DNA of 64,000 nt from NCBI RefSeq assembly GCF_044324785.1, contig NZ_CP172127.1; one strand, given 5' to 3'. This stretch comes from Escherichia coli (GTDB taxonomy: Bacteria > Pseudomonadota > Gammaproteobacteria > Enterobacterales > Enterobacteriaceae). Below the pieces are notes generated by a model, which was not told where the DNA came from, made no database searches, and saw only the letters and a program-made list of their open reading frames with translations. Within the stretch, counting starts at the first letter, position 1. Each line of letters opens with the position of its first letter. Positions 45,183-50,765 of the stretch are shown here, piece after piece. The position numbers and the translations under genes were made by a program.

Positions 45183-46001
45183 TTATGAGGCCAGTTGCAA
45201 CATGTTTTCAGCCATCACCCACAGGGCGCGGTTGAGCCTGACATCACCGTCGATGCCTTTAATGGCGCGGGTGTGCGTGCGACCACCTTTTGCCGTGCGC
45301 CCGTTTAAACCACCTTTGATCAGGTTCTCCTGAATACGCTGGTAGGTCGTCCACAGATCGCCGGATTCATCCTGCCAGCGGCGGGGAGCCAGCAACTGGG
45401 ATTCCGTCACTGGCTGGTGCTCTTCGCCAAAGCGGTACGTCAGCGCCGCCTTTGCCAGCGCCTGTTGCGCAGGGGGTGGCAGCATCAGCGACTGCATGGC
45501 ATCGCGTTTCTCTTCAACCTGGTCAAAAACACTGAGGACTTCATAAGCGCCTTCAATCACTTTCTCCACCACATTGCCTTTATGCGGTACCCGTACTTCA
45601 CCAAACGACTCGCCGCAGACCAGTCCGTTACAACAAACAGATCGGAACAGCCCTGGCAGCATCTGATATGAACTGGAACCGTCATGGCTGTTGAGAAGAA
45701 TAATTTCCGGCACCTGGTTGCGATTGATCTGGTCTTCCCGGCGCAGACGCAGCATGTGTTTTGTATGCTCACGTTTACCCACATCACGAACGCGGGTCTG
45801 GCAGGCAAAGAAAGGATGAAATCCTTCACGCTGGAGGTTATCGAGCAGAGTAATGGTGGGAATATAGGTATAGCGTTCGCTGCGTGATTCGTGCTTATTT
45901 TCCCCAAATACGCTGGGGACATACTGCATCAGTTCGTCATGAGTTAATGGGCGATCGCGACGGATTTGATTTACGTGACCAAAGCGGCTGGCTAATTTCA
46001 T
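45183..46001 (-). CDS. DUF932-family protein (YfjQ/YafZ-like)
   Basis: 272 aa; length and context match K-12 prophage paralogues yfjQ/yafZ; RBS aagga. Confidence 0.75.
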   Translation of the reverse strand: MKLASRFGHVNQIRRDRPLTHDELMQYVPSVFGENKHESRSERYTYIPTITLLDNLQREGFHPFFACQTRVRDVGKREHTKHMLRLRREDQINRNQVPEIILLNSHDGSSSYQMLPGLFRSVCCNGLVCGESFGEVRVPHKGNVVEKVIEGAYEVLSVFDQVEEKRDAMQSLMLPPPAQQALAKAALTYRFGEEHQPVTESQLLAPRRWQDESGDLWTTYQRIQENLIKGGLNGRTAKGGRTHTRAIKGIDGDVRLNRALWVMAENMLQLAS

Positions 46002-46187
46002 GGTGAATTCCTTAATAAAGAATATAAAAAACAGGCCGCATCTTCTGAAAAATTGCGGCTAATTTAATGCGTGATTAAAACGGACGGTAGTATAGGTGGG
46101 ATAAAATAACAGGTACGTGCAGATATTAAATTACATTCCGGCAGTGAATATATGAAAGTGATATAGTGCTGAAATAATACATATCTG

Positions 46188-46218
46188 AATTCTCCCGGTG
46201 ATAGTCACCGGGAGAATT
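46188..46218 (-). terminator. Strong hairpin downstream of the 284-aa gene
   Basis: 14-bp perfect stem aattctcccggtga / tcaccgggagaatt with 3-nt loop, 19 bp after the stop; T-rich run follows on the minus strand. Confidence 0.55.
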
Positions 46219-46236
46219 TAAGTTTGAAATGACACC

Positions 46237-47091
46237 TCAACCACGGGATAATCTTGTTTCTATTCCCTGAACTCTTTCGTCTATTAACCTTTCAATAACA
46301 GATATTTTATCTGACTTGTAAAATTTAACCAGAAAATCCAGACGCTCTTTATGCGTATCACTGATAGACTCCCTTTCCCGTTTTTCAGAAAGTTTACGTC
46401 TGAAGTTTTTTTGGTAAAACGCTTTATTTATTTTCTTTACCGCTTTCTGCTGGAGGTCATCATCCGCTGACCATAAATCCAGCATGGCATAAACGGCGTG
46501 ATAGGTTTCTACACTATTCAGTGGTTCCGGGATTTGAACGGGGTCTAAATGGTTTCCTGTATTACTACCGTGCTCTTTCTGGAATTTATTAATGTAATTA
46601 TAAGCCCATATACAGACTTCGTCATTATCCTCATTAAGCCAGCGTAATTTTATTCTCTGATGTTCATTTGCCCTCCAGAATACAAGCCTCTCATATAGCC
46701 ACTGTCTCATCAACGGTGCCTGATTAGTCTCAATATTAATATAGTCCAGTAATGCAACGATGATTGAGTATCTTTCGCTATGACTTGCAGGAGAATCTGT
46801 TATTCCGGCTTTCTGATACCAGTTAATGTTTAAATTTGTGCCCAGCTTTTCGTTAATTGACTCCATACAGCGGTAATCAAGACACATCACGCCCCATAGC
46901 CAGAACGTCGCTCTTTCATTTTCTTTTAACCAACTAAAATATTTCTCCGGCAGAAGCATCGTATTAATCGACAGCTCCAGTGAGCGAATAAAATTACTTC
47001 GCTGAATGGGATCGGGATACCCGACCTCGAGGGCTGTATTAATAATTCTCTCCGAAAGGAGATGTATCTGGATTGTTCCCGTCAAACGCAA
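46237..47091 (-). CDS. Hypothetical protein, no confident family
   Basis: 284-aa ORF in AT-rich DNA; TTG start at 47091 preceded by GGGAG; first ATG is at codon 45 (46959); Trp-rich N-terminal half, charged helical C-terminus. Confidence 0.55.
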   Translation of the reverse strand: MRLTGTIQIHLLSERIINTALEVGYPDPIQRSNFIRSLELSINTMLLPEKYFSWLKENERATFWLWGVMCLDYRCMESINEKLGTNLNINWYQKAGITDSPASHSERYSIIVALLDYINIETNQAPLMRQWLYERLVFWRANEHQRIKLRWLNEDNDEVCIWAYNYINKFQKEHGSNTGNHLDPVQIPEPLNSVETYHAVYAMLDLWSADDDLQQKAVKKINKAFYQKNFRRKLSEKRERESISDTHKERLDFLVKFYKSDKISVIERLIDERVQGIETRLSRG

Positions 47092-47783
47092 ATTGATTTG
47101 CTCCCTGAATGTTTTTCCTGATGTACCAGAAAAGAAACCTGCTGGTTCGGATGTCCTTCACTGCTATTGATGAGCGCACATTAACGGCCATTGTTCTACC
47201 TCGTCATCCTTGTTAAATCAGCAAAAAGCAATAGCGTAATTATGACGTGTTTTTGAAGTAAAACCGTAGCAATAAATCAATAAAAGTGGGAAATGCGTAG
47301 TAATATCGTGTTATTCCATAGTAATAGAGTACCATTAACGTAGTTTTTTATTTATCACCATACTCACAGCTTCCGCCCGTAGAAAACGGCTGGATAGTCT
47401 TAAATTTTTCCACGTATAGCCCTGGTGGCTTTACGGGTGAAACCTCCCAGGATAACGAGTTGACATCTGGAAGATGTCATTCATGACCGCAACTCATAGA
47501 TTAGATCAATGTATTAATTATAACTTAAGAGTGAAATCCTTTATCTTCAGGAACAGATAATTAACTACGAACACCAGTAAATACCGGGCTTCTACTCTTT
47601 TTATCACCCTTTCTTTATGAATCAACATTGCCGGTATTAATATTATGTTTATCACTCATTCATTAGATTCAGCATATAGAGGGATGACACCAGAGACAGG
47701 GAAAAGTAATCCAGATCGGCATAGCTCAGTGAAAAGTTACTACAGCACTTATGGATATGTAACCAACCACAAGGAACTGAAGC

Positions 47784-48398
47784 ATGAAACTGAATGAACG
47801 ATATGGCAAGCCTAATGCACACTATATGAAACGTCTGGAAGAGATTACTCGCTATGCGATGGATGATTACGCCAGAATACTGGCTTTCAGAGTGGATTTA
47901 TTACTGCCAGTGGATAATAGCCATAAAGGGTATGACTCAGCGGTTATTACCCGTTTTATAGCCTCACTGAAAGCACAGATAGCCGCATATTTACAACGGC
48001 GCAGGAGAGACGGTAAACGTGTTTACCCCTGTAAGCTGCGATATGCATGGGTAAGAGAATTTGGTGAACTGAATGGCAACAAGCATTATCACATGCTGTT
48101 GTTGGTTAATCGGGAAGTATTCAGGAATACCATGCTGAATACGGAGAATTCAGCGCAACCTCGCGGATTGCTGGTGGGAATGGTAGCGCGAGCATGGGCT
48201 GTGGCGCTTAGACGTACCGAAGATATGGCAAATAAAGTCCCCTTTCATTTACCAGGCGTCTCTTATGAACTGGATCGCAGAAATGGCACAAATACGGACT
48301 TTTTCCGCAGCTACATATACCACATCAGTTATCTGGCGAAGGAGTACACCAAAAACCACGATGACGGTGAACGTAACTTTGGTTGTAGTCAGGGATAA
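47784..48398 (+). CDS. YfjJ/YagK-family protein (inovirus Gp2-like)
   Basis: 204 aa, RBS aaggaa; family assignment by resemblance to the K-12 prophage proteins YfjJ/YagK. Confidence 0.75.
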   Translation: MKLNERYGKPNAHYMKRLEEITRYAMDDYARILAFRVDLLLPVDNSHKGYDSAVITRFIASLKAQIAAYLQRRRRDGKRVYPCKLRYAWVREFGELNGNKHYHMLLLVNREVFRNTMLNTENSAQPRGLLVGMVARAWAVALRRTEDMANKVPFHLPGVSYELDRRNGTNTDFFRSYIYHISYLAKEYTKNHDDGERNFGCSQG

Positions 48399-48515
48399 GT
48401 AATTTATTACCGGAGAAGTGATTGTAATGGCGGAGTATGCAACATCATCTTAAATTAATGGGTTAGTGTTGCTGCTCCTGTCTTTTATCAACGTAAAGAC
48501 AGAAGGACAATCGTC

Positions 48516-48734
48516 ATGAAAAATCAACCGAATACCGATACTGACCTGATGAATGACAAACTGGTGACGATGGCATTTATTACCACGTTTACTGGCCTGA
48601 CTGACAAATGGTTTTATAAACTGATTAGTGAAGGCAAGTTTCCAAAGCCTGTCAAGCTGGGGCGTAGTTCCCGCTGGCGGGAAAGTGAAGTTAAACGCTG
48701 GCTGACGGAACGTATTGCAGAATCCCGCAATTAA
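48516..48734 (+). CDS. alpA: AlpA-family phage/island transcriptional regulator (excisionase-like HTH)
   Basis: 72 aa with HTH (LVTMAFITTFTGLTDKWFYKLISEGKFPKPVKLG..SSRWRESEV), RBS gaagga. Confidence 0.85.
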   Translation: MKNQPNTDTDLMNDKLVTMAFITTFTGLTDKWFYKLISEGKFPKPVKLGRSSRWRESEVKRWLTERIAESRN

Positions 48735-48953
48735 TCTCCCTGACACTCTCTCTACACGCCTTCCCCGTAAGCATTAATCAGCACAAATGCTATATCAATA
48801 AGCGTCTGACAGGGCCGTTGCTGTGCATCTATCGACGCGTAACTTCATTATACCCGGATGAAATACGTTTCGTTTAACGTTGTCGAAAAATAATTAACCG
48901 GAGAATAGCCTGCTTATTTAGCAGGAATTCCCCGGATACAGCCACAGATAAAA

Positions 48954-49739
48954 TTAGGAATTAAATGTCCAGCTACCCGTATCGGTCACAATGTCAGCTT
49001 CAATGATACGGTCACACTTCATATATTTGAACGTAGCCACATCACCGAATTTATATTTAGCTGGCAGGGTTCTGTTACCGGCGCTCTCCATTTTACAGTT
49101 CCCTCTGTTTACCCGAATGGATTTCAGCACCACGTTGTCATCAGTGATAGTGAGCTGAATAACACCATATTTGGTATTCCAGCCTTCATTACTGACGGAG
49201 CTGCCGAACTGAACTTTAAATGGTGATGTCGTAGGTTGCTGTGCCTGCTGTTGTTGAGAGGGAGCAGGTTTATTTGCCTGCTGGCTACCAACGCTATTAA
49301 TGCCATTCTGAAGGAGGCTTCTGGAAACCTTAATGGTACCCGGCTTGCATGATACTGTGCTGGTTTCCTGCCCCATTGCATTCATGACAGTGTAATAAGC
49401 ATCACCTGTACCATCATATTCTGAGTAATTGACTGCAACCGCGCCTTCGATATCTTCATTTTCTCCACGTAATGTGAAAGAAGCGGTTCCTGCTCCCGGA
49501 TTAGCCGCCAGAGTCTGTTTCGCTTCGCCGGAAGGAATATCCAGTTTAATAACAGAGCCGCTCTCTTCGGAGTCACCGCCAGGATTTTCAAAACTGATAT
49601 AAACGGTATTGCTGACGTGGCTGAGTGTCATTTGCTCACCGTTATCAAGCAGACATTGCAGGTCATAGGCCCCGACAGCATAAGCAGGGTGGAATGCAAA
49701 TAAAGATACAAACAATACAGGTATAATGATTGGTTTCAT
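48954..49739 (-). CDS. Secreted/periplasmic protein of unknown function
   Basis: 261 aa; N-terminal signal peptide (MKPIIIPVLFVSLFAFHPAYA), Gln-rich linker, four Cys; 12 bp downstream of the GTPase gene. Confidence 0.65.
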   Translation of the reverse strand: MKPIIIPVLFVSLFAFHPAYAVGAYDLQCLLDNGEQMTLSHVSNTVYISFENPGGDSEESGSVIKLDIPSGEAKQTLAANPGAGTASFTLRGENEDIEGAVAVNYSEYDGTGDAYYTVMNAMGQETSTVSCKPGTIKVSRSLLQNGINSVGSQQANKPAPSQQQQAQQPTTSPFKVQFGSSVSNEGWNTKYGVIQLTITDDNVVLKSIRVNRGNCKMESAGNRTLPAKYKFGDVATFKYMKCDRIIEADIVTDTGSWTFNS

Positions 49740-49751
49740 TAAGCACTTTCC

Positions 49752-50765
49752 CTATCCAAAAAAATGGTCCCAGGCATTACCAGCCCACTCGATAAGTTTG
49801 TCTTTCCCCTTTCGGGTAAGCTCTTTGACAGGCTTTGGTAACGGAAAAGAATCAATAACGTCGTCGAGTATCCCGGAGATTACGCTGCCAAAGCCGTTTT
49901 TTGCTTCCGTCTTTACTTCGTCGGTTTTGAACTCATCCTTAACCTGCGAAGCCGTGCTACTTTTAGCCCGATCAGGCAAAGCCCGAATAATAGTCTCTAC
50001 CAGACGAAGAATGTTGTAGCCCTCATCGGCGGAGACAGGTGTCACCGGATAGTGCGTAAAACCAAATCGTTCAGTAATGTAGGCTTCTTTCTTTTCGATG
50101 TTGATGCGCTGTGCAGGAGATGGCTGATGCAGATGAGTATCCCACTCGCGGAATGGCTCAATTTTATCAACCTGGTTAAGGACGAATAAAACGCGCTCAC
50201 CCCCACCAGCAGGGAGCAGAACATTGTTGTAGAAATGCTCATCCGCAGAAAAGGCCCGATCGTCTCCTTTTATTACCCACAGGATGAGATCCAGGGAGGG
50301 AAGCAAATTACGGTATAAATCTTCATACTCCTTATCCCGCCGGGCATTCTCACCGACACCAGGTATATCAATGATCTTCAGCGAGTGTTTGCCGAAGCGT
50401 ATACGCAATTCCTGAACTTCACGAGTACATGCCTCAACGTCGCTAACTGCACAAACCTCCCCTTTAAACAACGCATTACATACACTACTTTTCCCCGCGC
50501 CTGTTTTTCCCATGACACCAATTACGGGTTCATAGTCGATGGCTTCACTGATTTTGTTCAACAGCTTTTCCCGCAGTGGCTGAGGGAAAATATCAAGAAT
50601 ATCCCTGATGTCAGGTATGTGCGGCTTGCTATCACCTTTTTGCTCGTTGCTACCATTACGTTCTGGAAATATATTGCTCCACATTCCCAAAATCCCGCCT
50701 TCCCTTCTGGTGACGCCACTGGCATCAGTAATCATCCGGCCTTCGCCCTTTACCGGGTCATCCAT
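49752..50765 (-). CDS. YfjP/YkfA/YeeP-family GTPase
   Basis: 337 aa; G1 motif GVMGKTGAGKSS, G3-like DIPGVGE; RBS aaggag 7 nt upstream of ATG 50765. Confidence 0.8.
   Translation of the reverse strand: MDDPVKGEGRMITDASGVTRREGGILGMWSNIFPERNGSNEQKGDSKPHIPDIRDILDIFPQPLREKLLNKISEAIDYEPVIGVMGKTGAGKSSVCNALFKGEVCAVSDVEACTREVQELRIRFGKHSLKIIDIPGVGENARRDKEYEDLYRNLLPSLDLILWVIKGDDRAFSADEHFYNNVLLPAGGGERVLFVLNQVDKIEPFREWDTHLHQPSPAQRINIEKKEAYITERFGFTHYPVTPVSADEGYNILRLVETIIRALPDRAKSSTASQVKDEFKTDEVKTEAKNGFGSVISGILDDVIDSFPLPKPVKELTRKGKDKLIEWAGNAWDHFFG

Follow-up and report, generated by a model that had tools for sequence, protein, structure and literature searches.

What kind of gene occupies positions 46237 to 47091 on the minus strand of the window, by which we mean the whole 64,000-nucleotide stretch of Escherichia coli contig NZ_CP172127.1, and what would its product do? 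A first-pass annotation of this DNA had read the locus as an intact, monocistronic orphan gene of 284 codons that starts at a TTG behind a GGGAG ribosome-binding site, ends in a strong terminator, adjoins a YagK/YfjJ-like gene and may be kin to YagM of E. coli K-12. Comparison with relatives suggests another answer. The best overall explanation, to which we give a probability of roughly 0.55, is that the locus is a frameshifted copy of a gene for a ribbon-helix-helix (RHH) DNA-binding regulator that acts on the region between this gene and the divergent yfjJ-like gene. The parts of this explanation differ in strength. To judge from the alignments, it is close to certain that the 284-codon open reading frame (ORF) is a frameshifted remnant of a conserved 317-codon gene; it is likely that the intact protein binds DNA through an RHH; and that this protein regulates the divergent region is a tentative proposal.

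Reading frame and alleles of the locus

An ORF of 284 codons with a TTG start does lie at 46237..47091 on the minus strand. The TTG is nevertheless not the native start, since relatives align to the ATG at 47191 behind a GAGG, and the window carries one extra C. The best match to the window, strain GF4-3 (L001 among the loci compared), has a PGAP-annotated coding sequence of 317 amino acids, and its 317-codon frame is opened by the ATG equivalent to window position 47191, with GAGG 7 nt before it. The sole difference of consequence between the two sequences is CATCTCCTTTCGG in the window against CATCT-CTTTCGG in GF4-3. With the extra C at 47058/47059 the native frame is lost; the alternative frame chances to be open as far back as the TTG, and the TTG ORF accordingly begins with 11 codons that lie outside the native frame. 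The GGGAG put forward as a ribosome-binding site exists, 9 nt before the TTG, but it is coding sequence of the native frame, where positions 47105-47101 belong to the codons CAG-GGA-GCA (Gln-Gly-Ala); as the alignments have it, both the TTG and the GGGAG are fortuitous. The native start position is common to the homologues. In our first search, all 12 homologous clusters encode proteins of 313-324 amino acids that cover 98-100% of the 317-amino-acid query at identities down to 44%, and the homologues' first 44 residues are well conserved (KDIR.CRF.F.YI...FDGNNPD). The alignment reveals a frameshifted remnant of a longer gene, the very outcome that the first-pass annotation had named as telling against its own delimitation. 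What stands from that annotation is a protein-coding gene without an assigned family that adjoins a YagK/YfjJ-like gene. Judged by these comparisons, the locus in the window is a recent pseudogene, at best the source of an N-terminally truncated product, and it should be recorded as a frameshifted pseudogene of the 317-amino-acid gene, with the 284-amino-acid TTG orphan and the link to YagM dropped. The features of the locus and its surroundings are collected in Table 1.

Table 1. Coordinates of the gene, its candidate regulatory elements and its neighbours in the window
Feature	Position	Strand	Remarks
Whole gene, native reading	46237..47191	-	317 codons with a +1 frameshift; 954 nt + 1 extra base
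Native start	47189..47202	-	ATG 47191-47189, Shine-Dalgarno GAGG 47202-47199, 7-nt spacer; from alignment and PGAP start
Extra C	47058..47059	-	frame broken after codon 44; CTCC in the window, CTC in relatives; from alignments
5' fragment ORF	47039..47191	-	50 codons: native residues 1-44, 6 out-of-frame codons, stop
284-codon ORF with TTG start	46237..47091	-	11 out-of-frame codons (MRLTGTIQIHL), then native residues 45-317
Probable ribbon-helix-helix DNA-binding domain	46261..46389	-	native residues ~268-310; from profiles and AlphaFold2 model
Perfect 14-bp stem with 3-nt loop	46188..46218		18 nt after the stop codon; possible terminator or 3'-end stabiliser
AT-rich divergent intergenic region shared with yfjJ-like gene	47192..47783		592 bp, 37% G+C
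-10-like element GTCATAAT	47239..47246	-	55-62 nt upstream of the ATG
Four same-orientation CTACG boxes	47382-47378, 47343-47339, 47300-47296, 47269-47265	-	candidate operators
YagK/YfjJ-family (inovirus Gp2/Rep-like) gene	47784..48398	+	divergent partner; YagK_YfjJ_C E=4e-38, REP_ORF2-G2P E=2e-7 (Pfam)
AlpA-family helix-turn-helix gene	48516..48734	+	downstream of yfjJ-like gene; Pfam Phage_AlpA E=2e-10
DUF932 gene	45183..46001	-	downstream neighbour; opens RadC / YeeU-CbtA / DUF4942 module

Nor does the description of the gene as an orphan survive: an exhaustive HMMER search returns 188 clusters (50% identity) at E<=1e-3 and 71 at E<=1e-10, nearly all of them with proteins of 290-350 amino acids, and among 5426 complete E. 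coli genomes 217 contain the 1.8-kb region, at 95-99% identity. A 71-nt probe laid over the extra-C site has a full-length match in 208 complete E. coli genomes, none of them identical (0/208), and each among the matches listed spans 70 nt. The exact 284-amino-acid frameshift product occurs on 19 contigs of the public collection, from separate assemblies, and the identical extra C is present in the independent run ERR11491456 (L016). Since 256 contigs encode an intact 317-amino-acid protein that is otherwise identical to that of the window, the mutation appears to be recent and limited to a minority lineage; on the evidence of these assemblies the frameshift is a genuine minority allele. Two incidental observations concern the distribution of the locus. 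A 98.7% identical copy lies on NZ_AP023207.1, a plasmid-classed record of 93.8 kb from E. coli TUM18781 (hits H2/H91) and the sole plasmid among the 220 places of the locus in the complete-genome set. The locus is also carried by two assemblies labelled DH5alpha (hits H28 and H47), which, at 4.83 Mb, are ~0.2 Mb larger than K-12 MG1655.

These data bear on several other ways of reading the frame. If the extra C were a sequencing or assembly error and the gene intact in the organism, a single-base indel within a short C run that is seen in none of the complete RefSeq E. coli genomes would be a natural finding; we consider this very unlikely, given that the exact frameshift product recurs on the 19 contigs of separate assemblies, one of which was checked and proved identical in sequence, and that a 2-base run is atypical for homopolymer error. 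It is scarcely credible that the locus is an intact monocistronic gene for 284 amino acids, kin to YagM, with its start at the TTG and its ribosome-binding site in the GGGAG. The ORF, the GGGAG, the TTG and the hairpin after the stop codon all exist, and gene callers emit exactly this 284-amino-acid product in some assemblies, but the conserved gene encodes 317 amino acids from an upstream ATG, no homologue shares the frame of the 11 codons that open the TTG ORF, and similarity to YagM is absent. We also think it unlikely that the frameshifted copy still functions by restarting at the TTG, which would yield a 284-amino-acid protein that keeps the RHH and most of a large helical body. A usable Shine-Dalgarno-like GGGAG does precede the TTG start codon by 9 nt, and the 273 downstream codons are identical to those of the intact allele on the 256 contigs, hence undecayed. 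That identity, however, would also be expected if the mutation were very recent; the 44 residues that are lost contain a confidently modelled helix (residues 14-27) and some of the best-conserved positions of the family (R15, R18, F19, F36-D42); and the Shine-Dalgarno-like motif and the TTG are by-products of native coding sequence. Programmed frameshifting or phase variation at the CC was considered as well and set aside, as a slippery or homopolymeric context is absent and intact alleles dominate (256 against 19 contigs). A frameshifted remnant of the 317-codon gene remains the reading that we carry forward, and the questions below concern the intact protein.

Protein family and its probable ribbon-helix-helix domain

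The family behind the locus is found in hosts that range from Escherichia, Enterobacter and Citrobacter through Klebsiella plasmids to Shewanella, and every source-given name of its members is 'hypothetical protein'. A tblastn search against 50,697 phage records found no phage relatives, and an origin of the gene in phages is therefore unsupported. The only match of the window protein in NCBIfam, to the theta subunit of DNA polymerase III, has E=0.024 and 14.5 bits against a cut-off of 97, and we attribute it to chance. With a 100-sequence family alignment as input (A3), AlphaFold2 models the intact protein as all-helical, with a predicted local distance difference test score (pLDDT) of 94.4 and a predicted template-modelling score (pTM) of 0.84. 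Because the model is of high confidence and no structural neighbour was detected for the helical body of ~260 residues, this body may perhaps represent a new domain.

The last ~50 residues are probably an RHH of the CopG/RepB-regulator type, as suggested by profile comparisons that agree on the location. Among 100 family members, 17 match the Pfam model RepB-RCR_reg and 7 match RHH_1 (E<0.01), 24 in all and always within the last ~55 residues; precomputed matches to PF10723 are carried by a few members (P0179, P0181). Searching the PDB with the family profile retrieves the RHH protein 2kel at E=0.009 and CopG at E=0.4, and direct profile alignment (hhalign) to CopG gives E=7e-5 and a probability of 63%, with 37 of 45 residues in register. 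The RHH segment of MatP aligns at E=9e-4. Distant members resemble a textbook RHH, for example KKALNTYLKNETKQRLDELAEHYGMRISDVLEKLINDHY. In the AlphaFold2 monomer the C-terminus consists of a coil (275-277), a helix (278-291), a 3-residue turn and a second helix (295-316), so that both helices and the turn fit an RHH, and the N-terminal strand is unformed in the monomer.

Known RHH proteins offer instructive comparisons. CopG and RepB-RCR_reg (PF01402, PF10723) are small RHH repressors of rolling-circle plasmid replication genes. The C-terminal ~40-55 residues of the family are in register with CopG through strand, helix, turn and helix, its C-terminus aligns to model positions 22-80 of RepB-RCR_reg, and, as with these repressors, the 317-amino-acid gene adjoins a Rep-like gene that it could control. 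CopG has 45 amino acids and is co-transcribed with rep, whereas the family protein has 317 amino acids, of which a helical body of 260 residues precedes the C-terminal RHH, and is encoded by a divergently transcribed gene. MatP was rejected as a whole-protein relative (PDB 4d8j, 3vea), only a 41-column RHH segment being alignable by hhalign, so that homology does not extend over four-helix bundle, RHH and coiled coil together; MatP differs further in that it is a chromosomal protein of 150 amino acids with a C-terminal coiled coil.

Two K-12 proteins were compared directly. YagM (b0279, L002) shares with the window ORF a nominal length of 284 amino acids and a home in a cryptic element, CP4-6, that carries a YagK/YfjJ-family gene. 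The kinship that had been proposed on these grounds does not hold: the best BLASTP E-value is 3.2, the hhalign probability with the family profile is 0.3%, and the native length here is 317 amino acids rather than 284. The shared length is a coincidence made by the frameshift. The arrangement differs too, yagM being co-directional with yagK and separated from it by yagL. YfjH (b2623, of CP4-57) is an uncharacterised protein of 318 amino acids encoded divergently from alpA-yfjI-yfjJ (L019 3645-4601), and thus has the same size and place as the 317-amino-acid protein; its spacer to alpA, however, is only 43 bp, and no sequence similarity is detectable (hhalign probability 0.3%, BLASTP E=5.6). 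YfjH is a positional analogue only. As an aside, K-12 yfjH may be a non-homologous replacement in the slot that the 317-amino-acid family holds here.

Island setting, candidate operators and proposed function

The 317-amino-acid gene is a backbone gene of AlpA / Gp2-Rep-like integrative defence islands. We sampled the context of 13 distinct loci besides the window, from 99% down to ~24% protein identity and including a Klebsiella IncFIB/HI1B plasmid. All 13 have a YagK_YfjJ_C gene in divergent orientation, across an AT-rich spacer of 0.4-1.6 kb, and an AlpA-family gene is called beside the YfjJ-family gene at 11 of the 13; it is uncalled on L012 and L013, and on the short contig of L012 the place holds only a cut 49-amino-acid gene at the contig end. 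The neighbour on the other side varies by locus and may be DUF932, an MMR_HSR1 GTPase, DUF3944, a membrane protein, RadC or an antirestriction gene. More widely, the neighbourhood is a module of DUF932, antirestriction, RadC, CbeA-CbtA and DUF4942 genes.

Islands of this description have been reported. In the relevant passages of PMC12458937, integrated mobile genetic elements carry AlpA-like excisionases, HUH Rep-like initiators and RadC/ArdB/CbtA 'moron' modules, and these elements are depicted beside the type 1 fimbriae operon. The relevant passages of 10.1101/2024.08.29.610337 describe jumbo-phage-transduced islands with a core of IntY, AlpA, an inovirus Gp2-like protein, RadC and YqaJ. 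Both sources present AlpA + Rep-like/Gp2-like islands in these passages as delivery vehicles for anti-phage defence, and the neighbourhood in the window matches the elements as they are described there. A protein of the 317-amino-acid family goes undescribed in the relevant passages of the two sources, and the phrase 'ribbon-helix-helix' is absent from the text of both.

The spacer to the yfjJ-like gene is where a regulator might be expected to act. The first-pass annotation had counted 684 bp of non-coding DNA here; the intergenic region is in fact 592 bp, and the first ~100 bp of the stretch are the true 5' end of the gene. Alignment of the intergenic region with those of loci at 82%, 54% and 46% protein identity reveals conservation only near the 5' end of the gene. 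In the window, the four CTACG boxes lie 191, 152, 109 and 78 nt upstream of the ATG, a number that was reached in the same zone by none of 2000 shuffles, and CTACG is not found on the opposite strand of the zone. The spacing of 43+31 nt recurs in L010, L013 and L003, though some of the proteins are only 46% identical. Two to three boxes in the same zone are present at each of the seven loci with at least 37% protein identity (0-6 of 2000 shuffles each), and boxes 50-210 nt upstream of the start are seen in the window, L010, L012, L013, L003, L017 and L018. The box nearest the gene overlaps the place where a -35 would be expected for the -10-like element GTCATAAT; this element is identical in the window, L012 and L013 and reads TCATAAT in L010. 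A promoter scan does not call this element, its -35 being poor. From their placement and recurrence, the CTACG boxes are good candidate operators. A triple repeat, GTGATAAA (TTTATCAC), was discarded as a candidate: its copies at 47351-47358, 47600-47607 and 47648-47655 (+) are matched by 33 of 300 shuffles and unshared by other loci. The TTTATCAC copies have one orientation and belong to the distal intergenic half.

We propose that the intact protein would dimerise through its RHH and bind within the AT-rich DNA between the two divergent genes, the CTACG boxes near its own -10-like element being the likeliest sites, and that in the bound state it would govern its own promoter, the yfjJ-alpA operon for replication and excision on the other side, or both. 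The large helical body could supply oligomerisation and higher-order assembly, or the sensing of a signal. The protein would then be a maintenance switch of the island that was lost in the lineage of the window, and a broken switch would fit the immobilised appearance of the island within its composite defence locus. Such control of the divergent region is conceivable but falls short of an even chance. A bolder version, which we regard as speculative and improbable, would make the family the hitherto unrecognised master regulator of a widespread class of tRNA/transfer-messenger RNA-integrating, defence-carrying satellite-like islands with an AlpA + Gp2/Rep-like core: the RHH, on phased CTACG boxes, would repress yfjJ-alpA, and the helical body would sense a helper-phage or stress signal and release the repression, as an equivalent of Stl. 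The parallel with Stl-type master repressors of phage satellites (Staphylococcus aureus pathogenicity islands, SaPI, and phage-inducible chromosomal islands, PICI) lies in a gene divergent from the excision/replication operon over a long regulatory spacer and in an island thought to depend on a helper phage. Stl, however, has a helix-turn-helix and not an RHH, and there is no sequence relation, so that the comparison would be one of functional analogy only.

Several results weigh against an RHH regulator acting at these boxes. The window protein finds no credible match in Pfam, NCBIfam, PHROG or PADLOC, and a single-sequence PDB search with the C-terminus of the E. coli protein returns nothing sensible. 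It is the family profile and the distant members that supply the RHH signal, and those members mostly fall below the Pfam gathering score: sampled distant members reach 14.5-18.2 bits against the threshold of 21 bits for PF10723 RepB-RCR_reg, and the window-clade protein has no match to it. A linked pseudo-dimer of residues 240-317 (78 amino acids) is poorly folded (pLDDT 67, pTM 0.46); at the position of the ribbon it has a coil of 7 residues, and DSSP assigns no strand. As for the operators, the boxes are absent from the most distant loci, including a plasmid locus at 27% identity, their spacing of 31-43 nt is unlike the adjacent repeats typical of RHH operators, and YfjJ or AlpA could bind them instead.

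Other roles for the intact protein account for part of the same evidence. Rather than a transcription factor, it might be an accessory protein that helps the excised island to replicate or segregate; it would then bind iteron-like repeats near an origin used by YfjJ, in the manner of ParG/omega or of a MatP-like organiser. The Rep_ORF2-G2P signature of the partner gene, the best-matching Pfam model being a replication-regulator family of rolling-circle plasmids, the same-orientation repeats spaced by about whole helical turns, and the weak similarity to MatP all point this way; we nonetheless rate it as rather unlikely, for the MatP similarity is confined to the RHH segment, and the overlap of the proximal box with the -35 position of the gene's own -10-like element suits promoter control. 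That the protein is a cargo effector acting other than by binding DNA, either an anti-defence or phage-interference factor or an RHH-type antitoxin, seems to us quite unlikely. In its favour, defence and counter-defence genes crowd the island, type II antitoxins commonly contain an RHH domain, and the helical body has no known fold; yet there is no PADLOC match, and a toxin partner and cargo status are both disfavoured because the gene keeps its place next to YfjJ while what lies downstream of it changes. A type II antitoxin would be expected to have a conserved adjacent toxin gene in one operon, and the downstream neighbour differs between loci. We thus retain the RHH regulator of the divergent region as the preferred reading of the intact protein. 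The finding in the window is in itself an ordinary one, a broken copy of a widespread 'hypothetical protein' to which a mechanism is ascribed by inference. Behind it stands an uncharacterised family of backbone proteins, probably RHH-containing, from mobile defence islands of a kind that is now topical. Its constant place beside the Rep-like gene, its probable binding of DNA and its conserved upstream boxes make it a concrete and cheaply testable candidate switch for AlpA + Rep-like/Gp2-like defence islands.

Hairpin after the stop codon and the wider island

The strong terminator that had been predicted after the stop codon is confirmed as a structure but not as a terminator. The 14-bp hairpin is perfect, its inverted repeat is found once in the window, and its stem is G+C-rich; the best 45-nt window has a folding energy of -23.1 kcal/mol, and the 76-nt hairpin region has z = -3.98 against dinucleotide shuffles. 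A U-tract, however, is absent after the stem, where the tail reads CAGAUAUG (CAGAUAUGUAUUAUUUC), and a terminator scan that requires at least 5 T in 8 makes no call. Most homologous loci have a hairpin after the stop codon; stable ones stand just 3' of it in the window, L010 (~6975-7010), L012, L013 and L004, unrelated in sequence and, at the homologous loci, usually without a U-tract. Because the structure is conserved and the sequence is not, this pattern suggests a role at the 3' end of the RNA. An Rfam scan of 45900-48900 gave nothing meaningful, its one match on the hairpin being to a microRNA model at E=0.84.

The island in the window adjoins the fim operon, and the surrounding 35 kb hold two type I restriction-modification systems, McrBC, AbiE, a SIR2-like gene and two DUF4942 genes. 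No tRNA gene was found within the window, and no integrase is among its annotated ORFs. The two DUF4942 genes, at 34100-34933 and 43025-43882 (both on the minus strand), lie ~9 kb apart with a type I restriction-modification system between them, and each ends an apparent RadC/CbtA-type module or a remnant of one, which suggests two successive island insertions into one hotspot next to fim. On the other side of the yfjJ-like gene, positions 48954-49739 (-) encode a 261-amino-acid protein with a signal-peptide-like N-terminus and no Pfam match, beside a YfjP-like GTPase gene (49752-50765); the pair recurs in L010/L011 and GF4-3. At the window edge, positions 59098-62889 (-) encode a 1263-amino-acid protein whose sole Pfam match is an N-terminal SIR2_2 domain, a possible defence gene.
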